A DNA stretch of 57,152 nt, the filler included, from Sphacelaria rigidula (lineage: Eukaryota): NCBI GenBank assembly GCA_964200075.2. It is 8 parts of 8 records of this genome, joined end to end, with 100 filler letters (N's around TTAATTAATTAA, not from the genome) between each part and the next. Parts side by side here need not be neighbours in the genome. Positions count along the whole stretch, not along the records: positions 1 to 7,057 come from CAXNAA020016719.1; 7 more parts are not named here. One strand, written 5' to 3'. The translations under genes and the position numbers were made by a program. This document shows, piece by piece, positions 2,696 through 50,096 of the stretch. The notes below the pieces were generated by a model, which saw nothing but the letters and a program-made list of their open reading frames with translations, ran no database searches and had not been told where the DNA came from. Every line of letters begins with the position of its first letter. The first letter of the stretch is position 1.

Positions 2696-2836
2696 TGTGA
2701 CGATTTTAAAAGATAACCAACTAGACCACTGACCAGTCAGTGCCGACTGCTCAGTAGTCTAGTTGGTTGTCCCTTAAACCGTCACAAAAGTTAGTCGTTG
2801 GTTCGATTCCCGTCGGACGCATTTTCTTTGAAGAAG
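2696..2836 (+). mobile_element. Truncated copy of the palindromic-LTR mini-retroelement (one LTR plus start of internal region)
   Basis: TGTGACG...CGTCACA palindrome at 2696-2786 followed by AAAGTTAGTCGTTGGTTCGATTCCCGTCGGACGCA, matching 4891-5040. Confidence 0.85.
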
Positions 2837-2939
2837 CTCACACGCACACATACACTGACGAACCACCACAAGCCGCAAAAGCAACAGTAGCAGTACTGTT
2901 GTACGGAGATCGCCGTTGAAGTTATCGCACACGCTTCAC

Positions 2940-3908
2940 GCCCGCGCATAACAGAGCTGGCACACCATTTTTGAACCTACCCACCCAAAACAGAGCAGGC
3001 GGCATGCCACGGCGCGCACACGCAAAACACAGCTCACACGCACACGTACACTGACGAAACACCACTACCTAGCCGCAAAAGCAACAGCAGCAGCGGTACT
3101 GTAGTACGGAGACCGCCGTTGAACTTATCGCACACGCTTCACGTGCCTAGCAGGCAACTGAATCATCACGTACTCTTGTGTGTTTGGATCAATTGTTGTG
3201 TGTTTGTTTCAAATGTTTGTAGTGAAGATATATATTATATTCCGGGTGTGTTCGCCGTTATCTCGCTGTTCTTCGCTGCGTTCATTGTGTTGGCGTGTTG
3301 GTCAGGGACAACAAGAGCAGTCTTGAAAACGCTTTCGATGGCGATATCAGCAAACCATCTGCTGTCGTCCTGATTGTTGAAGTCGCTTGTGCTCACGGCA
3401 AGGCTTTCAGAACCGTAAATGCCACCGTCCCGCACAATATTTTCTGTATAGCGCACCGTACTGTCTACTACTACTTACTGTCTGCGGTTAGGGGCAAATG
3501 CTACGCGGCACTCTGTGTACTAAATACCAGAAACAATTGATCCAAGCACACAATGATTGATCTTGACACACAAGAGTGCGTACTTCAGTTGCCTGTATTG
3601 TCTCTGGAACATACTTTTACTACAAACATTTGATCCGAACACACAACAATTGATCCAAACACACAATAGTACGTGATGGTTCAGTCGCCTGCTAGGCGCG
3701 TGAAGCGTGTGCGATAAGTTCAACGGCAGTTTTTGTACTACAGTACTGCTGCTGTTGCTTTTTCGGCTAGCTACTGGTGGATCGTCAGTGCATGTGTGCG
3801 TGTGAGCTGTGTTGTGGGTGTGCGTTCTGTGGCATGCCCTATGTGCCTGCTCTGTTTCGGGTGGGTGGGTTCGAAAATGGTGTGCCGGCTCTGTTGCGTA
3901 CGGGCGGA
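2940..3908. repeat. Long inverted repeat / foldback element (arms ~2940-3227 and ~3612-3908) with a tandem partial duplication at 2836-2940
   Basis: The arms are reverse complements. The ORF track shows near-identical peptides MNLSHTLH...CVWINCCVF on opposite strands (3119+ and 3723-). Confidence 0.85.
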
Positions 3909-4020: not shown

Positions 4021-4290
4021 TGCTCTTTTCGGGGCAAAAACGACGGAGAAGGGTCGAAAAAAAACTTTTCAACACGTCATGTTTTTTGATAACTTGACCG
4101 TTTGTTATTGAAGAAGTTTTTGTGGCCAAGAACGAAACTGTGACCTACGGAAAACGCAAAGGTGCTCTGGAACGGCCTCAGCGAGTAGAGCAAGTCATTC
4201 CAAGGTGTCAACATTCGCTGAGCCCTCTTTTCGGGGCAAAAACGACGGAGAAGGGTAAGAAAAATACTTTTCAACAAGTTATATTTTTCG
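4021..4290. repeat. Direct repeat CTCTTTTCGGGGCAAAAACGACGGAGAAGGGT, two copies ~200 bp apart
   Basis: Copies at ~4023-4055 and ~4224-4256, with similar downstream sequence. Confidence 0.7.
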
Positions 4291-4890
4291 ATACATAAGG
4301 AGCCTAACAAAGGAAAAGGAAAAAAGAAAACTGGAAGCGCGATGCGAAGCAGAACAATCTATTTTATATTCATGTCTTTGACTACTGGCATGATCATATG
4401 ATGGAATTCGTTCGCTGTCAATGAAAAAGTGAAGTTGGCAACAAGTGCTATGGAGGTTATATGTGTGTTGCCATGTATCGTATATCCTGTATAATGTATC
4501 ACCCGACTAGGAAGGCCCCCAGACCCGACGGGTAAGGTGGAAGGTGAGGATGCCGGGGTCAGAGGAATGCTACGGTGGGAGTGCAGAAATATTCTCCGAG
4601 GTTAGAATTGTTAGGAGCCTTTATCTCATCCAAAACACGATTCATGAAATATGTGAGAGTACGCCAGGTTTACTATTTCAATGTGCTAGAGACATCGCGG
4701 ATGAATTTGCGAACAAGGGTTACCATGTTCTTGCGCATCTAGAACCTTCGGGAGTCCCTGAGCCAGACAAGATTTCGCGCAAAAAGTGTATTCGTATCGT
4801 GGCATTGTTCGTCAGAGAATGAACTACCTACACCCTATTGCCAGCTTTGACCTGAATAAAACAGCCGATCATCGATATTGAGGATGGACC

Positions 4891-5802
4891 TGTGACGGTT
4901 TAAGAGATAACCAACTAGACTACTGACCAGTCAGCACTGACTGGTCAGTAGTCTGACTGGTCAGAAGTCTAGTTGGTTGTCCTTTAAACCGTCACAAGAG
5001 TTAGTCGCTGGTTCGATTCCCGTCGGACGCACTTTCATTGAAGAAAAAAAGAAGAGAGAAAACCTCGGTAAAAAATTGACTCAAAGAAAAGGGTGGGCTA
5101 TGTTTGGAGTGTACTGCTAGGGATCCAAGTGTACACACTCTGGAATGAGTGGGGGAGACGAGTAACTCAAGGGTACGGTGAAAGCGGCAACACTAGAGGT
5201 CCTGATGGCAGTCGATAGAGCGCTGGCAAGGGGAGTCGCCCTCCTCAGAGTGAAAGAAAGTGATGGGGACTGAATCCCCACGACTAACTTTTGTGATGGT
5301 TCAAGAGACAACCAACTAGACTACTGACCGCTTACTGGTCAGTAGTCCAGTTGGTTGTCTCTTAAACCGTCACAAAAGTTAGTCGCTGGTTCGATTCCCG
5401 TCGGACGCACTTCCTTTGAAGAAAAAAGAGGAGAGAAAACCTCTGATAGAAAGTTGGCCCCAAGGAGAGAAACCTCAGTAAAAATTGGCCCAAAGAAAAA
5501 GGGTGGGGCATAGCCTGGTGGCTATGTTTGGAGTGTACTACTAAGGTCCCAAATGCGCACACTCTCGGAATGAGTGGGGGAGACGAGTAAGCCTAGAATA
5601 CGGTGAAAGCGACGACACTAGAGGTGCTGATAGCAGTCGATAGAGCGCTGGCAAGGGGAGTTGCTCTCCTCGGAGTGAAAGTGACGGGGAGTGAACCTCC
5701 ACGACTAACTTTTGTGGTGGTTTAAGAGACAACCAACTAGACTACTGACCTGTCAGCGCTGACTGGTCAGTAGTCTAGTTGGTTGTCTCTTAAACCGTCA
5801 CA
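4891..5802 (+). mobile_element. Tandem TRIM-like non-autonomous LTR element with palindromic LTRs (LTR 4891-4996, internal 4997-5291, LTR 5292-5374, internal 5375-5712, LTR 5713-5802)
   Basis: Three TG...CA-bounded direct repeats alternate with two homologous ~300-340 bp spacers. GACC lies on both flanks (4887-4890, 5803-5806) as a 4-bp TSD. No credible ORF. Confidence 0.85.
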
Positions 5803-5845
5803 GACCTTTCCATTGAGGATGAGAACCCGCAGGATTGAAATCGTC

Positions 5846-6160
5846 GTATCCACACAAAATCTTCGAAATATGGTTCCATCCCTTCACCCACTACGACGTC
5901 GCTCGTCGTAGCTATTGACAACTGCTACACGCCCTAGTAATTTGGATTTCGATTACCGAATTGTTGAGGTCCTAGGGGTAAAACCAATTTCGAAGAATTT
6001 CGGCGATCGGATCAGATCACCTCAAATTCCCCATTTTTTCTTCATATAGGACCCCAACATTTCGGTTACCCAAATCCAAATTTGTAGGGCGTGTAGTAGT
6101 TGTCAATAGCTACCATTAGGTAAAGGAATGAAACCATGTTTCGAAGATTGGGTGTGGATA
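5846..6160. repeat. Degenerate foldback/MITE-like inverted repeat
   Basis: GTAGCTATTGACAACTGCTACACGCCCTA (5908-5936) pairs with TAGGGCGTGTAGTAGTTGTCAATAGCTAC (6085-6113). Complementarity extends outward to TATCCACAC/GTGTGGATA. Confidence 0.75.
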
Positions 6161-6914
6161 TGTCACGAATAACGTGGTGGATGTCTAGAGGTGAAGGGTG
6201 CCAGTTCGTGGGCACCCGAGTAGTCATCTCAAAAGACATGCAAGCACCAGGATCCGACCGAGTTCGATGATGATTGTGCATGCAAGATGGTTTAAAGTAA
6301 CTCTCCACCTGCAGCGCATGCTCGAGGCAACACCAGCTGCAGGCAAGCCAGGCTTACTTTGGACGAAAAAGCGACACCTCTGATATCGCAGTCCATGGAT
6401 GGCGTAAATGCTTCTTGTATTATCGGCGACAGGCTAGTGGGTGCTGTACGTGCTGGGATCAATCCTAAAAGCTCTGTGAAAACATGGGTAGATAATCTGA
6501 CACAAAGCATGAGAAGAGTATGACACATGAGCCTAGTCGACTGGAAAATGACTAATAAATCCATGACATGCCCCCAGCCTTATATATAAGGTTAAACAAA
6601 AAGGATTTATGGGCTGGCGGGGCCGAAAAAAAAACGAAGCCTGTACATCAACGCCTTAAGATAAAACGAGAAAAACCTGCATAATTACAATGCAGGGGAA
6701 AACTCGATATGTAATGGATAGGTAAACCCTGTTAGACAGGGGAAAACCCCATCCGTTAGGAAAGGAAAAAAATATATAGCGCCCTTTCCAACGACAGAAA
6801 CAGCAGACAAGTACGGTTAACAGCCGATCCTAATTTTTGGGGTTGAACTAAAATATGAGGTTTAACCCGCAAATCGCTTCCGATGGGAAAATACCAAACA
6901 GTAACACGAAAGGA

Positions 6915-7057: not shown

Positions 7058-7157
7058 NNNNNNNNNNNNNNNNNNNNNNNNNNNNNNNNNNNNNNNNNNN
7101 NTTAATTAATTAANNNNNNNNNNNNNNNNNNNNNNNNNNNNNNNNNNNNNNNNNNNN
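7058..7157. other. Artificial contig linker
   Basis: 44 N + TTAATTAATTAA (stops in all six frames) + 44 N. Confidence 0.98.
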
Positions 7158-7640: not shown

Positions 7641-9837
7641 GTAGTTAGTTGTTCTTCATAGTTGTACAGGATGTGAAAGGTTCGCTTGAGCCCAGGGAGC
7701 ACTTGGAGACATTTCCTAGGAGCCATGCTGTATCCCTAACCCCTGATATGGCGGGAAACGGAGAGGAGGGGGGCATGCTATGCATGTCTCTATTTGTCCC
7801 CGCCATATCGCAGTTACATTCGTGGGGACCTGTAGCTTTGGGCGTATATCTATGGTTGACACCATCTACGGTTGGCAGGAAGGAATGTTCCCGAATCCTA
7901 CGCCGTTTGTCGGTTGTGGCTGCTCATAGGGAACTGCTACTCAGCCGCAGAACTTTATATTGTGAGTTTAGAACCTTTCCGGTTCCACGTACCGGCGGTT
8001 GAAAATCGCACACTTTCATCTCATGTTGCCGTGGTTCTGTAGCGTGGAGTATGCTGCTGACACCTCAACGACCGAGGTCAGCACAAGCTGAGAAACTGGC
8101 TGTCAGATTGTTCACTGATGTCAGTGGATGCTGATGAAATAGTACTGCTTGTGTGGATTTAGTAAATTTGTGGTAACGGCTGGGATGACGTGCAGCTCCT
8201 GCCAGCAAGGCAACAGGAGAAGAGAGAGGAGTTGTGAGGCCGTTGTAGGTGAGGCAGTTGTGAGTGTGGAGGAGAGGGAGAGATAGTGAAAGCGGGGATA
8301 GAAGGAGAGGGACATTCCCTTATTTTCTGATGAATCTTGCCAGCGTGGTGGTGAATCTTGTCTCATGAATCGTTCGAGGGCGTGTTATCGCACGTCACCG
8401 GGGCGCTGAGTTCATAGGTACAGGTCATTATAAAGTAGTCAAACTGGAATCATTGTTTCTGTCGTTGTTTTCCATGATTGTTGTGGGGATTTTCTCTGGA
8501 TACGTGCGTTACTCGAAGCATATCTGCCGCAGGTGAGCAAGATTGCATTATTTGGTTATTTATTGTCCGGGCCAGGTCTGGACTAGATTTTCCTCCGTTG
8601 GCTTGCTACAGCCCAGGACAGTAGCAGAAGGAAAGCTGAAAAGAATGTGCAGTCAGAAACGATGATATTTTGATGAGCGCCAACAGGGCACCAAGTCAAA
8701 GCAAGCAAAGCATACACCTTCGAGAGGAAGCGGCACTCTAGCACACGGGAACGTGCACACGAGAGATATACCTTATTGCGTTAGCCATCTGATGTCCCGT
8801 GTTTAGAGTGCATGGTTGTCTCCACCGTTGTACCGCAACATGTTTCTGTCGCGATACCGACAGTATCCCCATCGCAAGAAGATTCGCCAGCGCTGGCCAG
8901 CCAGCTGTCACCGTGCTTGTCATGCATGTCTGTATGGCATCGATCAGCACGAGCCATCAACAACAGCACGACAGCCCACAAAAAGGAGCCAGAAGAATTG
9001 ATGCGTATAGAGTCCTTGTCGGGTCATGTCCCGTTCGACCAACATGAAACAAGACACAACGACGACGATGGAGCCATCTTAAATCATGCCCCGCATCCAA
9101 GGCCGTGCAGGATGCAGCACCAAAACCTGAGCGCAAATAGAGACTGCAACACCACCCCTGACCTCCGCAACCATACCGCGGGCACGGGACACTCAAAGCA
9201 AACGTTGGGTACACTGCCCCGTATACCAAGAGACAGAGCACCGGTTGTGGGACCGCTGTCATCTTGGATATCATCCTGCCTCCGCACGGTGCTGCACTGC
9301 GGCTGCGGGCACCAGAAGACTGGCAAAACCACGTGTGACGGAACCTATACTAAAATTAAGTTTGTACTTTGAAATGTATCATTAAACGTAAATGGGCTGG
9401 TCAAAACTTTTGATCAATTTACTTGGAATAAGTCTTGGTACTGCGAAAATAAACCCGTACCTGTGGACCCGCCGCCGTCACCAGCCGCAGAAATCGTCAT
9501 GATTATTTTTAATATTTCCACACATTACTCCTATCTCTCGAACCCGTAGTCACAAACGAAAGGATGTTATATCACTTGACTGGTACTGCGTCAGATGGTA
9601 CGTCCAATGAGTGCAAGGGCCCCATCGCTCTTTCGAGTACCCCAAACCTGCCGGATTACACTTTTAAATATCAACCGTTTCTCCACCCGAATACGAGCTT
9701 GGCCAGCCTAGAAGCAGATTTGAAGTTTGCAGGCCCATTCGCATTTGAAACTTGGAGTTGGAGATCCTAAGATTTGGCACAGGCTAGTTCACGCTCATCA
9801 CCCCAAAAAAACAATCATCGGCAAACCTCACACCGTT

Positions 9838-10456
9838 TCAAGAAGTTAGACCCTGAAATTTTGGACAGATGTTCTACGGGGCATTACGCAACTTTCGAAG
9901 GTCGAGGTTCTCATACTTTTTGTCCTTTTCACCGTTTTGGGGGGGTCCCAGTTTCCTCGGGGAAACATCGATCCAATCATACCCCCGTCAAACGGTAAAA
10001 AAATGAGAAATAAAAACCTCGTGCATGAAAAGTTCCATAATGACCTATAGCACAATTGTGCAAAATTTCAGGGTCTAACTCCTTGATTCGGCGTGAGGTG
10101 TTACGCTTTTGTGCGATGGACTTTGCCATGCCGCGGTGAAACCGCAAACTATTTGATTTTAGTACGAAAACTGCGGTTTTGGGCCTTCTTTGACGTGAAC
10201 ATGTAAATGTGAGCATCAGTTGATCGAGTTTTGAGACAAAATTTTGTGGGGTCCTTCCTTGGGTAACGCGGCGACAAATCGTCCGATAAAAAATTAAGAA
10301 CAACGTCGTAGTGCCGGTTTTTCGGGGTCCCAGAGTGGAGACTACTTTGAAGAACGACTGGGATCCCGTCGGGCCCCGAAAAACGAAAAATACTCGAGAC
10401 GTAAAGAAACCTCGTCCATAGAAAGTTGCGTAATGACACATTACAGGGTCCAACTT
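9838..10456. repeat. Inverted and direct ~70-bp repeats, probably a decayed DNA-transposon derivative
   Basis: AGTTAGACCCTGAAATTTTG (~9844) versus CAAAATTTCAGGGTCTAACT (~10061). A third related copy lies at ~10408-10456. Confidence 0.6.
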
Positions 10457-14214: not shown

Positions 14215-14314
14215 NNNNNNNNNNNNNNNNNNNNNNNNNNNNNNNNNNNNNNNNNNNNTTAATTAATTAANNNNNNNNNNNNNNNNNNNNNNNNNNNNNN
14301 NNNNNNNNNNNNNN
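14215..14314. other. Artificial contig linker
   Basis: 44 N + TTAATTAATTAA + 44 N. Confidence 0.98.
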
Positions 14315-21371: not shown

Positions 21372-21471
21372 NNNNNNNNNNNNNNNNNNNNNNNNNNNNN
21401 NNNNNNNNNNNNNNNTTAATTAATTAANNNNNNNNNNNNNNNNNNNNNNNNNNNNNNNNNNNNNNNNNNNN
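21372..21471. other. Artificial contig linker
   Basis: 44 N + TTAATTAATTAA + 44 N. Confidence 0.98.
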
Positions 21472-22899
21472 AGGCCAGTGGATTCTGGAGAAGTCCCTCA
21501 CTGAATAGCCCTCTTGTCCAGATCGTCTGGCAGAGGCTATAGTCCACGGTGCAGGCGAAACAGCACGTCTTTTTGCCACACGCGTCGTCCGCCTCGCAGC
21601 ACCCGCCATGAGTTCTTCGGGGGAAAAACGCAAGGAAACTATGATTTCTGCCGTAAGCGGCAACGAGGTACGCAGCCAATTCACGGCCTGAAGGAATTGC
21701 ATGAGTTCTGCGGCCGTCTCCGGGCGCCGCATGTCAGAAAAGCTTTGCAATCTGACAGGGTCATGAGATACGCGTCCGTGTGAGTACTCTTCCCCACACC
21801 ACACGAATTCACCAGCGAAAAAGGTACACTTGTGCGCAGCCGCAGACAAACCAACACTCTTTAAACGAGCCAATATAGCTTCAGGCGTGTCTGAAAGTTC
21901 GTCTTCCGTGTCCGCGAAAAAAAGCACATCATCCACCCATGTCTTGTCTTTTAAGCCGACGACAGGTTCTGTCATGATGCCTTGAAAATATGCCGTGGCA
22001 TTTAGCACGCCTCGCGGCACTCGATTCAGGCTAAACAGGCGAAAATAAGTCGTGATGGTGAAAATCACCTGCGCCTCCTCCGCCAACGGCATCTGCCAGT
22101 AACCTTGGAGGAGGTCGAACTTGCCAAAATGACGAGTACGCAACAGATCACGTATGCCCGACCTTTGATTGGGCATCATACCCAGCGACTTCTCAACCTA
22201 CTCATTTACGGCCTTGTAGTCGCTCACCAGGCGAAACGAGTCCTCCTTCGGAACCGCCATAGCCGGACTGGACCACACCGCGTGCAAGTTCCGGAACACC
22301 AATCCGAGCGCCAAAAGAGCCGCCATGCACGACGCCAACCAACTCGACTTCACCGGATTGTACCGCCGCGGCTTCAGCTTCACCGCGGACGCCCCGGGTT
22401 TTAGCTGAGCACGCATGGGCTCCACTTGCGCAGGGGGATCACCCCGCAGCGCACGACGAAACGCGTTGACGCGGCGATGCAAGATGCCACGCAGGCGCTC
22501 TGCTTTTGACACGCTGAGGCCTTTCGCCACAGCATCCGTCACGCTCTCCTCAAGAGCGACCTTCCGAGCGGACTCCTTTTCCGTCGGATCCATGAACATC
22601 TCCGAGCCGCGCTCCACCAAGTGTTCCGCCGCCTCATCCCGCTCCTCGATCATCTGCCTCCTAGCCTGCTGACAAGCGTTCACCGACAAGCTCACGCGAC
22701 GACTGCCCAAAAAGGCGGACGTCTCCACGCACGGACCAGGCGGAGATATCCGCGCATTCATGGAGCCCCACAACTGCGCATACGAGTCGACTCTAAGATC
22801 CTGAAGCGTCAGAAACCCCAGAAGAATGACGCCATCCGACCCCGACATGATCGTAAACGATATCGGAGGCAACGGCGCCGGCCCCCAGGAAGTCGTCAA
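21472..22899 (-). pseudogene. Gypsy pol (end of protease and reverse transcriptase), disrupted
   Basis: ORFs 22198-22899 and 21472-22179 are separated by an in-frame stop. RT motifs as above. Confidence 0.92.
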
Positions 22900-24743: not shown

Positions 24744-24899
24744 TGTGACGCTAGCCAGGAGAAAACTGCTGAATCACTGTTGTTTGAGGTCCTCCCCAGT
24801 AGTATTAGCCTTAGTTTCAGTTGTCAGCCTTTACAACCTTTCATTACCCGGAGTGCCCTTGTACGCACAACCTCATAGACCCTCTCTTAAACCGTCACA
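24744..24899 (-). repeat. 5' LTR of the gypsy element (156 bp)
   Basis: Bounded by a 7-bp inverted repeat TGTGACG...CGTCACA, upstream of gag. Followed on the minus strand by CGGTATCCGTGC, 9/12 identical to the initiator-Met PBS TGGTATCAGAGC. Confidence 0.75.
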
Positions 24900-27934: not shown

Positions 27935-28470
27935 TCACAGTCCACATATACCGAAAGGTGGAGACTGGAGTCCAGAGTAGATGAGACGACAACACACACA
28001 GCACACTGTGCGCAGTACACTTTCAACATCGTTTTCGCACTGGCTGTAGAAATATTTGTCCAGGGTCTGCTAAATTTCCACATATCATGCAAGATCTGGT
28101 AAACTTCTACTTACAATGCAGGGTCTGGTACATTTACACATGTATGTAAATGTTACTCAGTGAGATCGGGAAAAAATCCGAGAAGTCTGGGCGAACTGCA
28201 GGTGAGGCAATCGCTAAAATATTCACCTGCTAACTCCGCTCCAGTGCACTGTAGGATATCGCCAGAAGGACACTACCACAACCACCTTGCCGGTTGCCAG
28301 ACTGTCAAGACGTAGAATCCGCTGGCATTGCTTGTCGGGTACGTGGGGAAGGGTCCGTGGCAAAACACAGTGGTCGCGTCAAGCAGCTGCACGCTCGGCG
28401 TTCTCACTCAAGACTTCGATTTGGAGGATGATACTAGGTAGTGTGGCGAAATCACGCCATCACGGTTGAG
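27935..28470 (+). repeat. Composite dispersed repeat (SINE tail plus ~450 bp), inverted copy at ~49345-49925
   Basis: TGCAGGTGAGGCAATCGC..AAATATTCACCTG, CACTACCA.AACCACCTTGCCGG and AATGCAGGGTCTGGTACAT occur in the same order behind a SINE tail in both copies. Confidence 0.8.
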
Positions 28471-28528: not shown

Positions 28529-28628
28529 NNNNNNNNNNNNNNNNNNNNNNNNNNNNNNNNNNNNNNNNNNNNTTAATTAATTAANNNNNNNNNNNNNNNN
28601 NNNNNNNNNNNNNNNNNNNNNNNNNNNN
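28529..28628. other. Artificial contig linker
   Basis: 44 N + TTAATTAATTAA + 44 N. Confidence 0.98.
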
Positions 28629-35684: not shown

Positions 35685-35784
35685 NNNNNNNNNNNNNNNN
35701 NNNNNNNNNNNNNNNNNNNNNNNNNNNNTTAATTAATTAANNNNNNNNNNNNNNNNNNNNNNNNNNNNNNNNNNNNNNNNNNNN
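35685..35784. other. Artificial contig linker
   Basis: 44 N + TTAATTAATTAA + 44 N. Confidence 0.98.
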
Positions 35785-37263: not shown

Positions 37264-37580
37264 TTAACCCTTAGACCGCGATGTGGGTAGTCCATCTGGA
37301 TCAGGCATAATTTTTTCAAGTGAAATTGATGGTGATTGAGCAGTTGACCTACCCTCGCAGTCAAAGGGTCAACCCTTTGACCGCTACAATAGGTCACCTG
37401 CTGAATCGGTATCAATATTCACTTGGAAAAGGATGCATGATCCAGGTGGACTACCCGCATCGCGGTCCAAGGGTTATCCCTTAGACGGCGAGAGTAGGTC
37501 ACCTGTTGAGGCATCACTTCCACTTGAAAAATATGCGTGATCCAGATCGACTACCCTCCTCGCGGTCTAAGGGTCAACCC
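37264..37580. mobile_element. Tandem array of ~100-bp piggyBac-like MITE units; related decayed unit at ~36590-36690
   Basis: TTAA|CCCTTAGACCGCG...CGCGGTC(C/T)AAGGG|T(T/C)A(A/T). Units joined at GGG-TCAA-CCC and GGG-TTAT-CCC. CCC...GGG ends with TTAA sites are the piggyBac signature. Confidence 0.75.
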
Positions 37581-39730
37581 TTTTGGCACCTTCTACTCCA
37601 CAATCGTGTGTTAGCGGCAGGTAAAAATGTTTTCGTGAGATTGAGAGTAGGGCGTTGATTGAGAATGGGTTCTATCATTCGCTTTCAGTATGCCAACTAT
37701 TCATTCCGTGTGTGCTTCTCTTTGCCTGTATCACTTGCGTGTGCTCACAGCTACACGTCGATATCTTACTCAAGAATATCAAGGGCTTGACATAATCTTT
37801 TTTCATGGCAGTCACCAATCTCGATTGTTCTGAACATCGGGGGGAACAGACACGAAGAGACCGACTTCTGGGGCTCATCCAGGCTCGTGGGGCAATATTT
37901 GCCTTTCGTCATCGAAAGAGAACGGCATGGATCCAAAATTCATATCGAGAAAAAGTGGACTGCATCCAAAAATCAGAACCCTACCGTTATTTCCGTTGTT
38001 GTTCCTCATATATATCATGCCACTGCGTCGCTTTTCGTCCGCGCTTGCGATGCGCTGGCATACAAGGAGTCTAGTTGGGTTGGCCGAACCCAATGCACAC
38101 CGAGAACACTCAGGCAAGGGCGGTACATATATTCCCTGAACGAAGTGAGGCCTTGGTGGACCCCACATTGGCGCCTGTGACGCCGATTTCAACAAAAACG
38201 CGTTCTGCGCACCCGAGGAGCACACGGGACTGTCAGCCCTACTAATATTCCGATTCTCGTTGTACACACTCAAATCAAGTAATATCAACCATGAACATTT
38301 GTAGCCCAACCCCGGTAACTGAAACCAGGAAGCTGAACCATTTTTGGGGGGGGATACGGATCGAAATTGGGCCAACATGATGTGCTCAACATGCGACAGA
38401 GCCATATGCACTGATGAACGTCACCGAGGATGGCCCTTACACAGACGATTGGAGTACAAATAGTCACCGGGTGTGCGATGTGGGCTGGGTGGGTGTTGGC
38501 ACCTCGTCATGTTTCAAGAACAAGCTAGATTGTGACGAACGAACGTAAGCTGTGTGTGCCACTACTGTACATTCTGTGATTTTTCGAGTTATGATCTATC
38601 AATTGCCGTGCACAAGAGTGCTTTTTAGAGTCCGCGGATGAGCAGTCATGTCTGGCAGTCACGTATAAGACAACATAATGCCGTTTCAACAAATAGACAG
38701 CACCCTCGGCGTTTTGGAGGTCAAGTATTCATATTGGTTTCTTCAGTTGGGGAGACCGTCGTTCTCATGATTTCAGTTGGGGTGAGGAACCTTGGTAATG
38801 TGTCACGTTTTTTATCACCCCCGACATCATATGTGGGCTCATGTGAACGCTGGGGTCCCATGTATGAAGAAAAAAACTTACGGGGTCAGGGCCTTTCCGA
38901 AATGTTCATAGCATAACATTTTCGGTGACGAAGTTGGGTTCCGCTGCATTTTCGATGTCGACAAACCACGCAACACCCCTTCACTTCGTCACCGGAACTA
39001 CTTCACTCTTTGTGGATGTAGATGGCTCCACCATATCGGAAACAGAGGACGAGTCAGACTCGACTCATACGAGTCATCGGCAACGAACTCACGTCTAATT
39101 TAACAATCCACAACTACGACTGGGGCTCGTTACACGTGTGAAGACTCGACACTGCAGACTTGACACTGCAGATTCTCGGAGTTGGTGTTGGACTGACTGT
39201 CCTTAGTCACACCTGCCTCCGTTCGAGGTTGTTCGTGACGAAAAAAGCTGGGGACGTCGGCTGTGACGCGCCCCTCGAATAGTTACCATCCTTAACTTTT
39301 ATTTTAATAAGCGACGGTGTGGACGGTGGTGCTCCGACACCGTGTAGGCGTCGGCCGTCTCAGAACCCCAAATTCATTGCATCTGAGGAGAACGAAGGAG
39401 TAAATTGGACTGTCAACACAACAGTGCCCGCATTTTTGGAGTAGATTCTGTTAGTTTCAGTCACACAGATTTTGTGTAGCCGTGCATGCAATGAAAAACG
39501 GTTGGGCACAAAGCATGGTGGTGCAAGTTCGGAATTTGCTGTCATGTCTTTGACCAGTGAAGTTGCAGAGTGTGGAGGCTCACAGCCAAGGTAAACGCGA
39601 ATTATTATCTCCGCGAGTAGTAAGTACGAGGCGCTCGTCCTATGCGTTCATGATAAACCGCACATGCATGTCGACCACTCCCGAAAGTGGTACTCACTGC
39701 GCAATTTCGTGCGAACGTGTGCCGATGCAG

Positions 39731-40033
39731 GCACTTCTTGTCAAGCTACCCACGTCTTGTGAGCCGTTGCCGGGTGCTGGTGAAAGAAGACACCTGGAAA
39801 CGGGTCGACACGATAGACTCAACAGGGAAAATGAGAGCCCACGATCATGCGTTTGTCAAGGCTGGACCACACTTCATGTACGGGCGCAGCGAAGGGACAA
39901 GAGGCGCAGATGGATTGTTGAACATCGCTGTATTTGGTGGCGTGAAGAATTTCACGCTTTTCAAGACTACCCAATCCTCGTTTACTAACTTCCACGTGGA
40001 CAACAACACTTCGCTTCCTGAAGCGACGGACAG
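39731..40033 (+). CDS. UOX: Urate oxidase (uricase), internal exon
   Basis: CAG acceptor and GTTAG donor. HFLSSYP...W...HDHAF...LFKTTQSSF...SLPEATDR match conserved uricase motifs (H-x-H-x-F, KTTxSxF, LPExxDR). Confidence 0.93.
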
Positions 40034-40403
40034 GTTAGCAAGAGGATGGGAATACGATTGTCCGGGAGAGAGATGGGTTGATCGCGTAAGACTACGGCCT
40101 CGTCCCGAGAAAGGAAAAAGGTTGAAAGTGTACCAAATTTGTACCTACATATGTATAGCTGCACGTTCGAGCAGACGCTTCTCCTCGGGGGAACAGGCGG
40201 TGTTCGTACCATATTGTAGTTCTGCCTTTGGAGTAGAGTGCTATGAATCGTTAAAGTACACGATGAGAGAGCATTTTATGTGTTCAGATAACTTCTGCTG
40301 GAAACGTAGCGGGTTTTGATGGAAGTTCTTACTCTGATCCTTCAACAATACTTTTCGCGTGAAAAGAAAGCGAGGCGAACAAAATCTCTTCAAAATATAT
40401 GTG

Positions 40404-42840: not shown

Positions 42841-42940
42841 NNNNNNNNNNNNNNNNNNNNNNNNNNNNNNNNNNNNNNNNNNNNTTAATTAATTAANNNN
42901 NNNNNNNNNNNNNNNNNNNNNNNNNNNNNNNNNNNNNNNN
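42841..42940. other. Artificial contig linker
   Basis: 44 N + TTAATTAATTAA + 44 N. Confidence 0.98.
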
Positions 42941-45900
42941 ACCATCGCTGAAAGTGTGGGGATAGCACTGTTTTAGGCTTGAACCTCATCTCAAAGTTAA
43001 ACCTCAATTCGCACAATTTGTTGTTCAAAGCTGTTTACCTCCTACGATACAACGGCAGTGTTGGTATTACACTCTCCGACGATCCTCAACTTTTGGGAGT
43101 TGCACGAGTTCGCCGAAATGGCATACCAGTACTTACGGGTCATTATCTTGCTGAAATGCTACCCCGTATTAGCCTACCAGCCAACACAGAACATTTTGTC
43201 CCGGCGGGACAACAACTCCTCCCTCTTACGGGTCATGCTTGGAACCCGGCGATATTTGAGGAATCGCCGCTGCTCCTCGGATGCACATCCCACTCGAGAC
43301 GTGCGTAACAGAGCCTGCCGAGCCCAACGCACCATCTCCGACGGCGTCAGTCCATTGTGTCGATGAACCTTTTTTCGATATCGCTTCTGCGACTCCACCC
43401 CATGTCCACGCCGTGGATCCTGCCGAGTCAAACGATCCTCCTCCTGAAAAGCTTCAACGCTCATCAACATATTCTCGGAATCATTTCTTGCAAAAGTGGT
43501 CTCAACTGCCGCCACACATGCGTGATATCAATTTTGACCTTCATGGACCCGGCTGGGAACCGGCAGTCATCTGAGAACTCAGTGATGTCCTGCTACAGTA
43601 CCAAGACTGATTTTCTCGATCCAAGACGGATCTTGGGCACTGCAAAACGCTGCCCTTTGAGGTTACCCTCCAACCCGGCGTCTCATCAATCTCTTCTCGA
43701 CCGTACCGGACAAACCCAATCCTTACCAAGAAGGTCAATACCATCTTGGATGCACATTCGGGAGCGGGATTAATACAACATTCCTTCTCTCTTTGGGCCT
43801 CGCCCCTTGTGGTCGGTCCGCAAAAGGATGTAAACATGCGCATAACCGTGAATTACCAACGGTTGAACCGCGTCACTGAGATTGGTAAACTTCCAATCCT
43901 CCGCGTTGATGAAGTCTTCGACTCCTTATGCGAAGGCGAAATATTCAGCACCTTCGACCTCGCTTCTGTCTTTTTTTTTAGAATGCTATCCCCCCTGACA
44001 CAGTCCCACTAACGGCCTCTTGTACCTCGTCCGGGCTCTACGAGTGGCTTCGAATGCCACAAGGCGCTGCCACTGCTCCGGATGCTTTCATCGCTTAATG
44101 CAACGCGTCACCGAGGGCCTCGAGCACATCATCATGTACCTAGATGACGCTATCGCTTTTGATGCCTCACCTATTGCACACATCCGCACTCTACGAGAAC
44201 TTCTCTCTCGCACACGAACACACGACTTGAAACTGCCTCCATCCAAAGGTCGCCTCGGTGCGACTGACTTAAATTTCCTGCGTCCATTCAATTTCGCCAG
44301 CAGGACTACATCCGGATACAAACAAAGTCAGGGCGATGACGGACTTACCGATGACAACCAACATCTCTCGACTTCGCTCATTGTTGGGCGGACTATCCTA
44401 CTACCGCAAACGTTTACCGAATTCATCTAAACGGATTCGCCCCCTTACTGAGTTACTCAAGAAATGAGCCGTGTTTACCTTCACAACCGATATGGAGAAT
44501 ACCACCGAAAGCCGGTACTCTGTTTTCCTAATTGGGAGGCAAAACAAGATGGCTCTCGCCATCGTTATCTCCACATTGACGCCAGCACAGACGGATTTGG
44601 AGGAGTTTTGAATCAACCTCAGGTTGATGGCTCCGTTCGAACCATCCTCTACATCAGCCGCGCCACCCTGCCCAGCGAGGCCAACTGGAGCCCGCTAGAA
44701 TTGGAAGGTGGAGTGATCACTTGGGCCACTAAGCGCCTTCGGCGATATTTGTTTCACGTGCCCTTTGAGATTTATACCGATCATGGAGCACTCGAACAAC
44801 TCGCCAAGGTTGGCGAACACAACCCGCGTGTGCAAAAATGGCTGGAGTTTCTGACAGCATTTCACTATACCATTAAGCACCGTCCAGGCAAAATCAACGA
44901 GAACGCTGATCTTCTTTCTCGACTACCCCTGCCGCCTACGGCCGCAGATTTCAGCCCGGCTTGCTGTTCAACTGACCTGATGAACCCGGAATCTACCCGA
45001 TTAGACGTTCTTCAACGCCCGTTTATGCCCTCGATCTCCAGTGCCCAGAAACTGGTATGCATGTGGGAGGACCTCGCCCTCTACCATATGACACCATCTT
45101 GGGTGAGTGAAAGCCCACAACTGCGGGCTTTGTGGACTTCCGTACTTTTGGTACTCACGCGAAGCTTTCCACGGGAAAACCTTCGGTCACCCATCTAATC
45201 TTCGACAACACGCGCTCCCGGTCTGCGCCCGCCCCACCCCTCCGAGTGCCCCGCCGCCACTGATAACACCTGCAAATTCCACGAGCCACGCAGGACCTGT
45301 CCCACGGACCAGCACGCAACGCTCCGCGAAAGCTCGGACAATCTTCGCTGCGCACTGATACAGCCCCGCCGCGCATAACGGTGGCACTAACATCTACCGC
45401 TCCCGAGCATAGAGTCGACGACTCAGCTCCTGCTCCCGGGGCAGATATTGACGTCGGCATTTCTGTCCCGTCGCCTATTCCCCCGCTGCCTACCGCACCA
45501 TGTTTGGTCAGCTCTCCAGCAGAAGGTAAACTGCGCGAGTTTTTCGCCAGCTACTCTCACTGCGACTGGGCTCGCGAAAAAAACTCGGAACCATTATGTC
45601 GAGCAGCCATCCGGTACTTTGACTGTCCAATCCCTTTTCCGTCCGCCATTCTGGCCCCGGTGGGCACACTGCCACCACCAGATATCTCTGACGTACGAAC
45701 TCGTGCGTAAAGGCACTACTGTTAATACGGATGAAGGCGAACAACTACTCGTGCGTCGCTCCACGCCTTTGACGGGCGCAATTTCCGTCTCAACCATGAG
45801 ACGCCACGCACGACTACTCGATGGCGAACCAATGCCCATATATCTCCCATTATTAATGCGCCCCTAGGTCATGAAAGGCTGTCACACAGACTTGTCATGT

Positions 45901-47063
45901 CACCTTGGCGTCACCCGCACCCTAGCGCTCTTGGAACGATTTTACTGGTGGGTTGGCATGGAAATTTCCACCCGCTTCTGGGTTCGGCGATGCTTCAAAG
46001 GCCAAGCCCTAAAACCTTCACGACAGACAGTACGCTGGTCCGTCATCTCTATGGGACTCCCCAATGCCCCAGACCACCTTGTGTCCTTTGACTACTTTGG
46101 CCCTCTACGGACCACTGGTCGCGTCAACACCTATATCTTACTCTTCACTGACCGCTTCAGCCGCCACGTGTCCATGTACGCGGTAACCGCTGCATATTTC
46201 ACTGCCGCCGGAACGGCCGATATATCGGTCCACGGCTACATTAAGCACTACGGTTGCCCGAAACGACTCCTTTCAGACCAATTTCTCTCAGATCTCTCTG
46301 ATAAGCTCTACAAGCTCCTGGGCATCCGCAAAATTGCCACTAGCGCCTGCCACCCGAACGGTAACAATGGTACCGAAAGAGTTAATCACACCATGGCCCA
46401 GATGATCTCTATGGTCGTCAATGACCGCCAAAATGACTGGGACCTACATCTCTCGCACATCATGGTGTCCTACAACAACTCGATTAACGCCGCCACAGGC
46501 CTTTCCCGGAACGAACTCCGTCTTGGACGTTACCCTCGGTTGCCCATCACCGCGTTTGAGCGACACACGTTCGATGGCCACCAAGGATTGGATCAGGATC
46601 AGATATCCTATCACGAACTAGCGCACTCACGACAATGCAAATCGTTCACCCTCGTGCGCGAACAACACGCTATCAACGCCACGCGCCTTGAGAGATCCAA
46701 CACTGCTCTCTACAACGTCCTGGACAAATGCCTCGACTGGAAAGTTGGTGATTGGGTTTGGATCTACAACAGTTTGTCGACCATCCGCCAAGGCACCAGC
46801 AAAGCCGCCAACGAAACAACTTTGAAGACAAAATTGCCCATCAACTGGACAGGACCTTTCAAGTTCCTGACAGTTGGATCATCGCCATCATCACTGGATG
46901 ATAAACCCGTTGGTGACAAACTGCTCTACCTCGACCTGCCTCACGACCTCCAGGGCAAGGACACCAAACCCCGCGTCTCGGTGCACAGATGCAAAGCCTG
47001 CAGGAACCCGCATGATAAAAGCGAGATGCCCAAGCATCTACCTGCCGGACTCAAACGGTACGT
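42941..47063 (+). mobile_element. Second Ty3/gypsy retrotransposon, pol region (RT, RNase H, integrase), degenerate
   Basis: RT WASPLVV, RITVNYQRLN, FDLAS and YLDD (43746-44300). RNase H DAS..GFG, ELE, YTDH and NADLLSR (44464-44940). Integrase follows RNase H. Many frameshifts. Confidence 0.95.
45871..47063 (+). pseudogene. Gypsy integrase (HHCC zinc-finger remnant and DDE core)
   Basis: CHTDLSCHLGVTRT...FYWW, FDYFGPL, FTDRFSR, LLSD, NNGTERVNHT, WTGPF. Small deletion after LSD. The ORF tail beyond ~47063 looks unrelated. Confidence 0.92.
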
Positions 47064-49112
47064 TGTCAGGTACGAGTGTGAACTTGTAAATAAGATATCA
47101 ATTGGGGTGTCGTGCCACACCCAAGCACTACACCCCCCTCCCAGCAAGGGAGTCTAACATCGATGAGACTGACTGATAGAGTGTGAGAGGTCGGATACTG
47201 TGAGGATTGAGATAAAGTAATCAAGAAGAGACATTATCTACCTACGCGTGACATTCTGATACCTTTGACACGTGTGTGAGGGTGGTACGCAGTGTAAACA
47301 TATACTGCATAACACTTGTGCCTATTGTGCGGCTTGTTTGTCCAGCCTGTTGACTGGCCCCCCGCCTTGCCTATTGAGCCTGCGCTTGCCATACGTCCAG
47401 CACAATCCCATGACACTTCCCCCTGATTAGACGATAAGTACGATATGCGGATCACGCCCCAACTTGTTTGTGTCGATGAGATATGGCCGCGAGAGTTTGA
47501 ATCCGTTTTCAGGCTGGTCCAGGTCGTATTGATCCCCTGAAGGACCACCCGAAAAAACTACAGATTCGGTCACCATCTAAGAGGTTGGTAGTTGTGAACT
47601 TCAGCCTCATAGAAAAAAGGTTGCCCATGAGAACGGGTGCCCAGTTCAGAGGTTCCAACAAGGTCGACAGCCCACCATAAACGGCCGCTACAAAGAAGAA
47701 CGTCATTTTGTATTTGCCGCGCATTATCGATGATAGATGTTCAGTCGTGCATTCAAAGTTGATAATTTTGTTTGATGCAAGAGGCTTTGTCACCTTCTAT
47801 TGTCTCCGAGTGGAAGCTATCGCTGTTGCGGAGGCAAGCGGCGATATGAACATGATGGAGGATTCTGAAAAGTGGGGGTCGAGACTGACAATGGGATTGA
47901 AGCTGCCTTCCGAAAAGGCACATTTCCCCCGAAACTTGCGGATCTTTTGTTGCTGTTGCCGCTAAGCACGTGTGGCTAGTTTCAATCAATACTGTGTACA
48001 GGTGTGTCGATGATGATATCACCAGAGAAGCAATGATATCACAGGAGAAGCAACGGTGGAGAGAAAGTTCCTCGTCCGTGCCCGTTTTGTGTCCTCGTTC
48101 GGCGATTTCCAATCGCTGGAAAGAGTTTCATCACGCTACCAGCACATACCCAGTTTGCCATCGTCGGCACACGAAGGGCAGATGGTTTCGTGTGCAGCTC
48201 CCTAAGAAGATCCGTGTGCCCAGGGTTGCCGTATTTTGACTGATGATCGTCTCTTGTCTGTGGCGCTGACCAATGCAATTCTCTCTCTGCCTCTCTTTTC
48301 GGATAGGACATACCTCTATGCGCTACAAAACACCGTCGAAAAACAGGGCGATGTTCCCGTCACCACTACTGTTCTCACACACACGCACGTGCGAGCAAGG
48401 ACGGTTTGCGGCAAGATCTAATCGCATGTCGGGGGGGTGTTGTTGTTTTCGTCGTTGATATTGCCCGACGTTTAGCACAAGGACACGAGTCATGCACATC
48501 CCAGTTGGGGGCATGCATAAGAGATCAGACACCCATGGAGACCTTCTTAGCATGCGGAGTGAGACACTTTCTACGACAGCCTCCCCCAAAAACCAGCCCA
48601 AAAGTGTCACGAAAAACATGGTCATACAGCGCCTGATGTTTGGGTTCAGGCTGCATGAAGCGCTTCATAGTGGCGACATTGGCTAGAACGAACCCAAGCG
48701 TGGTAATCCCCAGCTGTTCGTTGTGCTCGGCTTTTCCCGTTTTGATTTACATGGAAGTGTTGCCTTCCAAAACATGCACGTTTGGGGGGGGCGGCTATCG
48801 TAGAAAGTGTCGTGAAAAATGATAAATCTGGCGGTGGCTTAGCTGTGGCTAGCGTGACCCATATGGGGGCTGGCATACTGCACTATGTGCGCTCATCTGA
48901 TATACAGTTGGTCGCGTGCGCAGAGGTGTGTATGTGTGTTTCTTACAAGATTCGACTCTGAGGAGGCCATCGCGAGTTGAGACGAGATATGTTTCCACCA
49001 GGGACAAAGTTTATCCATCTGCCGTTTCATTTGTGACCCACGCCAAGAGCTGTTCCAATTCCAATTTCACAAAGTAAAGTTGGTTTCTGCTGTGGGTAAA
49101 AATTCGACTAAG

Positions 49113-49344: not shown

Positions 49345-49925
49345 GCCGCTGCCCACCTAGTATCATTCTCCAAATAGAAGCCTTGAGTAAGAACCTCCAG
49401 CGTTCGGTGCCCATGCACAAGGATGATTTACATCGAGTATCATGCTCCAAAACGTACCTGACCAGGGGGCCATACCCCCGTACAGACAGTAGCAATGCTA
49501 GAGGATCCTACGTCCTGACAGTCTGTGACAGTCTGGCAGCCGGCAAGGTGGTTATGGTAGTGCCCTTCAAGCGATATCAACTTACAGTGCACTGGAGCAG
49601 AGCTTACAGGTGAATATTTCGGCGATTGCCTCACCTGCAATTTGCCCAGCAGAACGTTTCTCGATAAAACCGAGTAACATCACATACGTGTACAGGTAGG
49701 AACGTACAAGGCCCTCCGTTTCATTATAAGTCGAGATGTACCAGACCCTGCATTATATATGGAAATGTACCCAACCGTGGACAAAACATATCTACATACA
49801 GTACGAACACGATGTTGAACCTGTACTACGCAACGTCGAGTGTGCTGTGTATGTTGTCGTCCCATTAGTTCTGGATGCTGGTCTCTACTTTTCGGTATAT
49901 GTGGGCGCACCAGCCGCGACTGTGT
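49345..49925 (-). repeat. Composite dispersed repeat (inverted homologue of 27935-28470, SINE tail at ~49840-49925)
   Basis: CTTTTCGGTATATGTGGGCGCACCAGCCG is the reverse complement of the SINE tail. The remainder matches 28100-28460. Confidence 0.8.
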
Positions 49926-49996: not shown

Positions 49997-50096
49997 NNNN
50001 NNNNNNNNNNNNNNNNNNNNNNNNNNNNNNNNNNNNNNNNTTAATTAATTAANNNNNNNNNNNNNNNNNNNNNNNNNNNNNNNNNNNNNNNNNNNN
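49997..50096. other. Artificial contig linker
   Basis: 44 N + TTAATTAATTAA + 44 N. Confidence 0.98.

Follow-up and report, generated by a model that had tools for sequence, protein, structure and literature searches.

A palindromic terminal-repeat array in Sphacelaria rigidula: an abundant, non-coding miniature element that was probably inserted by an integrase acting in trans

A 57,152-nt stretch of DNA from Sphacelaria rigidula (assembly GCA_964200075.2; hereafter the window, along which all coordinates run) carries at 4891–5802 a 912-nt array in which three palindromes (P1, P2 and P3) alternate with two spacers (S1 and S2) in the order P1-S1-P2-S2-P3. This array is an old insertion into another repeat and comes from a very abundant family of non-coding mobile elements. 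Its termini are TGTGA...TCACA, reading TGTGACGG... at the left end and ...CCGTCACA at the right end, and its longest open reading frame (ORF), which is also the only one, has 49 aa. The parts of the array are as follows.

4891–4996, no strand: P1, terminal palindromic repeat of 106 nt, starting with TGTGACGG; fold -44.5 kcal/mol
4997–5291, plus strand: S1, non-coding spacer of 295 bp, whose head (4999–5032) resembles the 3' half of a tRNA
5292–5374, no strand: P2, middle palindromic repeat of 83 nt, common to both units; fold -48.8 kcal/mol
5375–5712, plus strand: S2, second spacer of 338 bp, whose head (5377–5410) is the same as that of S1
5713–5802, no strand: P3, terminal palindromic repeat of 90 nt, closing with CCGTCACA; fold -44.1 kcal/mol

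An earlier note on this DNA had described a long terminal repeat (LTR)-internal-LTR-internal-LTR layout with TG...CA ends and GACC on both sides, and this is what the locus holds. It had also described the repeats as loopless palindromes of about 90 bp. P3 fits that description, with 45-nt arms, a 0-nt loop and 93% complementarity, but P1 and P2 depart from it in length, and the palindromy of the array passes TG/CA. It continues for about 11 nt into both spacer ends (CGACTAACTTT to the left and AAAGTTAGTCG to the right of every inner palindrome), and beyond these lie about 25 nt more per side that are diverged, weaker inverted copies; the tail of S1 (approximately 5266–5291) is a diverged inverted copy of its head. 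P1 contains an 18-nt internal duplication adjoining its centre, and the centre of P2 is deleted or altered, its extended palindrome spanning 5281–5385 with 49-nt arms at 94%. Long palindromes typically suffer centre-directed deletion, as may be compared with P2, and duplication, as may be compared with P1. The single-strand folds of P1, P2 and P3 have z-scores of -13.6, -16.0 and -15.8 and were equalled by none of 200 shuffles, and a 32-nt arm probe found seven matches in the window against 0.00 expected. P1 and P2 are 90.4% identical (75/83), S1 and S2 85.9% (250/291 aligned letters), and the outermost arms form inverted repeats of 72 nt at 92%. S2 has a private 31-nt tandem duplication at 5429–5495, within which 5445–5480 is skipped by other family copies.

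For the wider family we aligned contigs of four public runs (one alga plus 'algae metagenome') to 4400–6300 at 80% likeness; three of these runs (X1, X2 and X4) are DNA, and the fourth (X5) is only guessed to be RNA, none of the runs that contain this sequence being catalogued as RNA, so that its contigs over 5292–5578 are uninformative on expression. The right arm of P3 equals the consensus arm given in the earlier note, and the left arm deviates from it at three positions, of which 5718 and 5751 agree with the consensus in almost every contig of the family, 5717 being mixed. Since the contig majority restores two of the three deviations and the right arm already equals the consensus, the family consensus is a perfect palindrome. 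The proposed self-complementarity of the repeat is thus confirmed, and the arms likewise bear out that each terminal repeat is at once direct and inverted. Differences between arms are single uncompensated substitutions, mostly transitions. The copies in the array are therefore decaying, without selection for pairing.

The insertion and its surroundings are delimited by four further features.

4887–4890, no strand: left copy of the target-site duplication (TSD) GACC, from the sequence and paralogous empty sites
5803–5806, no strand: right copy of the TSD GACC, from the sequence and paralogous empty sites
4528–4890, no strand: left part of a high-copy host repeat; near 4528 the depth climbs from 32 to above 10^4, and joints lead to 5806–5811
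5807–6190, no strand: right part of the host repeat, with inverted repeats of its own (5847–5888/6119–6160 and 5908–5974/6047–6113)

The check for empty sites, which the earlier note had suggested for orthologous loci, could be made at paralogous ones, with the best 15 of 389 joints and the best 24 of 2781 loose ends. Among the joints listed, 10 types link 4885–4889 straight to 5806–5811, in up to four runs, and represent other copies of the flanking repeat, many of which are without the array. Subtracting the intervening letters from the skipped length gives 916 (912 + 4) in 11 of 12 listed rows and 915 in the remaining one; where the array locus has 4 + 912 + 4 nt, the paralogues have 4 nt. 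Because the empty sites lose exactly these 916 nt, the 4-bp duplication around the whole array is genuine, beyond a 1-in-256 coincidence, and the TG and CA boundaries are confirmed. None of the listed joints or loose ends falls at the boundary of an inner palindrome. It is possible that the dimer was inserted as a single unit, but a monomer that underwent unequal crossing-over shortly after its insertion would account for the locus just as well. The host repeat is itself modular, many of its family copies stopping at 4618, 5892, 6047, 6115 and 6160. As to abundance, the 1.9-kb stretch received 16,607 contigs from X1, 20,199 from X2 and 15,889 from X4, and within the palindromes a single position is spanned by 35–104 different contigs of the DNA runs. 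The word depth, added up, is not a copy number; it is 3x10^4 to 8.5x10^5 in the element bins versus 32 in the unique left flank in X1. Each unit has decayed by about 7% from the family majority.

In both units, motifs resembling the internal promoter of RNA polymerase III lie across the junction of palindrome and spacer:

4965–4976, plus strand: A-box-like motif of unit 1, one substitution off the search pattern, with the B box at 5010 following 45 nt downstream
5010–5020, plus strand: B box GGTTCGATTCC of unit 1, exact match
5289–5292, plus strand: first T4 downstream of the boxes of unit 1, falling precisely on the S1/P2 junction
5343–5354, plus strand: A box of unit 2 (TAGTCCAGTTGG, a match to the search pattern), with the B box at 5388 following 45 nt downstream
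5388–5398, plus strand: B box GGTTCGATTCC of unit 2, exact match
5710–5713, plus strand: first T4 downstream of the boxes of unit 2, falling on the S2/P3 junction

The B box has three matches in the window against 0.43 expected, all within copies of the element and exact in all three. The A-box pattern was matched in two of the three copies at a spacing of 45 nt, with the third one substitution off, and any A-to-B pair occurred in 0 of 200 shuffles; the pattern takes Y at its fourth position, the matched copies reading TAGT where the box of the Helenus family reads TRGC. A distance of 45 nt between the two boxes is the spacing seen in tRNA genes. The A box lies within the repeat, once per strand, and the B box 14 nt outside the CA end. 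The 34-nt heads at 4999–5032 and 5377–5410 are identical, B box included, where about five differences would be expected at 85.9% spacer identity; possible reasons are local gene conversion or that the B-box region has been constrained since the insertion, for instance by factor binding. With the family-majority letters at 5264, 5270 and 5275, the spacer tail gives a B-box match on the minus strand (GGTTCAATCC), and each inner palindrome would therefore be flanked by two divergent tRNA-like modules. The spacer head is not a tRNA. A 22-mer of it equals the 3' end of a bacterial tRNA-Arg(CCG), but this sole match to a prokaryote genome is estimated to be at about chance level; it shows only the T-arm plus acceptor form of the head and gives no evidence of ancestry. 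The exact arm 21-mer had no matches in viral or metagenome contigs, the head 25-mer none in metagenome contigs, and among Rfam models Vault reached only 11 bits and neither a hammerhead nor another ribozyme was found.

Two further traces of the family lie in the window, together with the masked runs that affect repeat searches:

2696–2835, plus strand: partial family copy, consisting of a palindrome (2696–2786) and about 48 nt of spacer head, followed by unrelated DNA
24883–24899, plus strand: isolated, exact 17-nt fragment equal to the outer end of the right arm (...CCGTCACA), standing alone without any adjoining piece of the element
7058–7157, 14215–14314, 21372–21471, 28529–28628, 35685–35784, 42841–42940 and 49997–50096: paired 44-nt N runs

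The partial copy has its A box at 2755 and its B box at 2800, and GGAC (2692–2695) on its left. Its flank AAGGAC (2690–2695, before TGTGACG) resembles AAGGTC, the reverse complement of the right flank of the array (5803–5808). The 17-nt fragment may be what is left of a deleted copy, or else the footprint of an excision. Two arm variants absent from P2 and P3 are common to P1 and the partial copy (4908/2713 in the left arms, 4982/2772 in the right arms), which could reflect a subfamily, gene conversion between neighbours or chance. We rejected these shared variants as a decisive case against the LTR route: chance is roughly estimated at about 0.05, gene conversion is possible at 2 kb, and the total decay of P1 (about 7%) equals that of the spacers. 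Directly after the partial copy comes a foldback structure (2835–3906) with arms at 2835–3226 and 3616–3906 that are 86–87% alike and an internal tandem duplication; the 9-mer TTGAAGAAG, found at 2828–2836 and 4108–4116, may mark an insertion into the partial copy.

Elsewhere in the window, ORFs of Gypsy type encode RT_RNaseH (44464–45198, plus strand) and Integrase_H2C2 (45871–47157, plus strand), and an RVT_1 fragment lies at 21424–22179 (minus strand); a search for paired LTRs found none for either the Gypsy-type ORFs or the RVT_1 element. A 420–450-nt LTR-like stretch is shared in inverted orientation between 27942–28360 and 49462–49904. Two more self-complementary repeats of foldback type, resembling miniature inverted-repeat transposable elements (MITEs), occur at 9825–10099 and 37264–37577 (275–315 nt, arms 70–73%, without TG...CA), and this region of the genome is rich in palindromic repeats of several families. 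'Periodic repeats' of 7157 nt were discarded, being the masked N runs, which are a source of spurious direct repeats. An ORF with a uricase domain (39687–40319, plus strand; Pfam PF01014, E = 1.2e-12) is probably an exon of a host gene.

We are fairly confident that the array is a non-autonomous element inserted in trans by a retroviral-type DDE integrase, because TG...CA ends of the form TGTNR together with a 4-bp duplication are the footprint of such an enzyme. These ends and duplications are known for the LTRs of Gypsy elements and for Ginger transposons (PMC2836005). The inserting enzyme may have a GGWC-like target preference, which is hinted at by two events only. Each 45-nt arm would represent one integrase end and the terminal repeat two such ends fused back-to-back, giving a left and a right end per repeat; a repeat built from two back-to-back ends would be both direct and inverted.

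How the element was copied is a weaker step. The right arm and the first 35 nt of the spacer would form a tRNA-gene-like promoter for RNA polymerase III, its A and B boxes 45 nt apart, from which transcription would begin near the centre of the palindrome and read a plus-strand spacer free of T4 until the TTTT that abuts the next palindrome. Copying would then pass through this RNA, as in the miniature LTR retroelements of the TRIMp3 type (Helenus- or Cassandra-like). Owing to the polymerase III-type boxes and the placement of T4, our best reading, tentatively held and falling just short of an even judgement, is an integrase-inserted, non-autonomous element that leans slightly towards such an RNA route. 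The RNA route taken by itself is plausible, if a little less likely, and copying as DNA is somewhat less likely again. The strongly non-random and well-kept boxes, a unit of about 350–380 nt and the Gypsy-type genes in the window speak for RNA, and precedent exists in miniature retrotransposons with terminal repeats (TRIMs) with tRNA-like or 5S promoters (PMC10886601).

A number of observations weigh against this reading. No canonical primer-binding site (PBS) follows the repeat: after ...CACA comes AAAGTTAGTCG in both orientations, and the PBS position reads AAAGTTAGTCGCTGG..., by inspection without a TGG start, an anticodon-loop-type PBS being conceivable. No polypurine tract (PPT) adjoins a downstream repeat either, each being preceded by CCACGACTAACTTT, with the nearest purine-rich run about 23 nt off. 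The TTTT before the downstream repeat would halt polymerase III short of U3-R, and a genomic RNA of LTR type needs that part. The tRNA-like stretch runs in sense, not in antisense, the B box lies outside the repeat, unlike in Helenus, and ARAGORN found no tRNA genes; the best tRNA-type matches of the Rfam covariance models were to tRNA-Sec, at 16 and 11 bits (E = 7–9). The copies read directly amount to one complete and one partial one, no autonomous partner with the ends of the element occurs in the window, where only fragments of the family share them, and the long symmetric inverted ends suit a DNA transposon at least as naturally. The earlier note had spoken of a non-coding mini-retroelement. 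A non-coding mobile insertion it is, given the 49-aa ORF and the 4-bp TSD, but as PBS and PPT are lacking and the spacer ends carry the same sequence inverted, its status as a retroelement is unproven.

The most serious competitor, which we consider unlikely though well worth weighing, is a non-autonomous DNA transposon or MITE of Ginger-like kind, mobilised by an integrase-related transposase. Here the 45-nt arm would be a terminal inverted repeat (TIR) and the 90-nt palindrome a minimal element whose ends became fused by internal deletion; palindrome-spacer-palindrome would be a composite moving as DNA via its outermost ends, with the A and B boxes a relic of the source DNA. The inverted outer ends (72 nt at 92%), an inverted symmetry that spans the whole palindrome and both spacer ends, and the absence of any PBS/PPT asymmetry all agree with this, as does the bare 17-nt end fragment at 24883–24899, and the fusion of two perfect inverted ends accounts for a loopless perfect palindrome without extra assumptions. 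Ginger1 and Ginger2 have inverted ends of 40–270 and 50–180 bp, respectively, TGTNR termini and 4-bp duplications; however, Ginger1 targets CCGG/CCGT and Ginger2 the AT-rich RTATAY (PMC2836005), as against GACC in the one complete insertion we have. Moreover, no such transposase was seen in the window, where the sole integrase ORF adjoins an RNase H ORF and is therefore of Gypsy type. The partial copy at 2696–2835 does not consist of a lone palindrome that has a duplication to itself, and an exact B box and a tRNA-like A-box spacing kept in decayed copies would go unexplained without transcription. The boxes at tRNA spacing, the unit of about 350–380 nt and the T4 at its end could also fit a tRNA-derived short interspersed nuclear element (SINE), that is a polymerase III transcript copied by a long interspersed nuclear element (LINE) and locally duplicated, its palindromes being inverted duplications of the SINE head. 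The RVT_1 ORF in the window and the partial copy, which has only palindrome and head in common with the array, point the same way. Yet the boundaries are the outer TG and CA of full palindromes and not a transcription start and an A-rich or LINE-like tail, the target duplication is fixed at 4 bp and no tRNA model matches, so that we find a SINE very improbable.

Even less probable is a locus whose primary role is to give rise to small RNAs from hairpins (as a microRNA or small interfering RNA precursor) and which is no transposon. Perfect 45-bp hairpins and weak Rfam matches to the plant precursors MIR831 (41.4 bits) and MIR4240 (39 bits) would suit it, but these scores lie far under the gathering thresholds (100 and 200 bits) and express no more than the long hairpin, the arm mutations are uncompensated, and the family, present in very many copies, shows the behaviour of an insertion. 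Finally, the RNA 3' end (...CGACUAACUUUU) is complementary to 12 nt at the primer-binding position after the right arm (AAAAGUUAGUCG), from which one may imagine an orientation-free, self-priming polymerase III retroelement. A transcript running from the palindrome centre to the TTTT abutting the next palindrome would fold back at its 3' end and prime reverse transcription of the right arm, thereby making the left arm; this snap-back would rebuild a perfect palindromic 'LTR' and replace both tRNA priming and strand transfer. As both strands bear the same boxes and ends, either could act as genomic RNA. We regard this scheme as improbable and its mechanism as speculation.

The origin of the three-repeat form is separate from the question of RNA or DNA. 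It could come from unequal crossing-over between repeats or from the use of non-adjacent repeats as ends. In particular, a monomer (palindrome-spacer-palindrome) may have been inserted and the second unit gained later by unequal crossing-over between palindromes, a course of events on which our judgement is evenly balanced. Tandem TRIM arrays have been ascribed to unequal crossing-over (abstract on Wukong), and the form with three repeats and two internal regions (L3I2) is the commonest tandem TRIM form in maize, with 63 of 93 arrays (PMC4717578). Wherever one of the spacers is listed as deviating from the family majority, its counterpart in the other unit has the majority letter, and both units would thus descend from one consensus-like sequence. 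On the other hand, the difference between S1 and S2 (14.1%, 41/291) is not below that between P1 and P3 (8.9%, 8/90 arm positions), which suggests, as far as such small numbers can tell, that the duplication is no younger than the insertion.

Since the family is very abundant in this alga, its classification affects the annotation of repeats in algal genomes; automated pipelines would label it TRIM, MITE or unclassified, by whichever rule fires first. It offers a clean natural case of one sequence serving as direct and inverted terminal repeat with integrase-type ends. It can thereby serve to ask which portion of an LTR is really required by an element that depends on an integrase, and how miniature elements with terminal repeats (TRIMp3) recruit polymerase III promoters. 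Perfect 45-bp hairpins that carry B boxes and lie scattered in their thousands might, in addition, have consequences for the stability of the genome, the making of small RNAs and the binding of TFIIIC.

Among known systems, the tandemly arrayed TRIMs (TA-TRIMs such as Zma-SMART, Wukong and Cassandra) come close in layout. As the earlier note had proposed, the array has their L3I2 form (PMC4717578), with less than 1 kb per non-coding unit, a shared middle repeat and one surrounding TSD. Tandem TRIMs occur in 35 of 43 plant genomes, their duplications measure 4–6 bp and a single duplication flanking L3I2 arrays is common (PMC4717578). Like a TRIM, the array has TG...CA direct repeats (83–106 bp, against a range of about 100–250 bp for TRIMs), no coding capacity and a 4-bp TSD. 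It differs in lacking a tRNA-complementary PBS near the 5' repeat and a PPT at the 3' repeat, in a terminal repeat that is a near-perfect loopless palindrome and in spacer ends that are mutually inverted. Within the TRIMp3 group (Helenus with a tRNA-like LTR, Ajax and Cassandra with a 5S-like LTR), which likewise combines miniature terminal-repeat elements with polymerase III boxes, Cassandra is transcribed by polymerase III, and animal Helenus elements make 4-bp duplications and are thought to depend on Gypsy (PMC10886601). Helenus shares with the array an A box (TRGCY...YGG), a B box (GGTTC), the lack of a functional tRNA and the 4-bp TSD (PMC10886601). In contrast, its tRNA-like sequence lies inside the LTR with both boxes, and PBS and PPT are present, whereas only the A box lies in the repeat of the array.

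Ginger1 and Ginger2/TDD resemble the array in their TGTNR termini, inverted ends and 4-bp TSD, the array having inverted ends with TGTGA on both sides. It differs in its target sequence and in having no Ginger transposase in the window, and in the excerpts available the ends of Ginger are described neither as self-complementary palindromes nor as bearing A and B boxes. The earlier note had argued that the LTR/TIR distinction is blurred by the element, which may form a class not yet described. That goes too far, because Ginger, with TGTNR termini, inverted ends of 40–270 bp and 4-bp TSDs (PMC2836005), already occupies this ground and is recognised as a bridge between LTR elements and TIR transposons (PMC2836005, PMC6839031). 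With tRNA-derived SINEs (SINE2) the array shares A and B boxes spaced as in tRNA genes, a unit length near 350 nt and a terminal T-run; it has, however, TG...CA ends, a fixed 4-bp TSD and full palindromes at both ends in place of the 5' end at a polymerase III start, the A-rich or LINE-like tail and the variable TSD of a SINE. The Ectocarpus repeat Sower, which the earlier note had named as a large retrotransposon derivative (LARD), is given as an unclassified repeat and not termed a LARD in the available part of its source (PMC3145265). Papers on 'palindromic LTRs' concern, by their titles and the beginnings of their abstracts, LTR-LTR junctions or LTR end motifs, and the literature searched, which took in brown-algal TRIM, MITE and Ginger work as well as foldback elements, and outside whose scope lie Repbase, Dfam and the Ectocarpus supplements, does not describe the structure in the portions available. 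The combination of a perfect loopless palindromic terminal repeat, A boxes on each strand of this repeat and B boxes a little way beyond it, and complementary spacer ends at the PBS and PPT positions is unusual and appears in none of it. In conclusion, the element belongs with the miniature transposons already known, as an unusual variant of them, and does not make up a new class.

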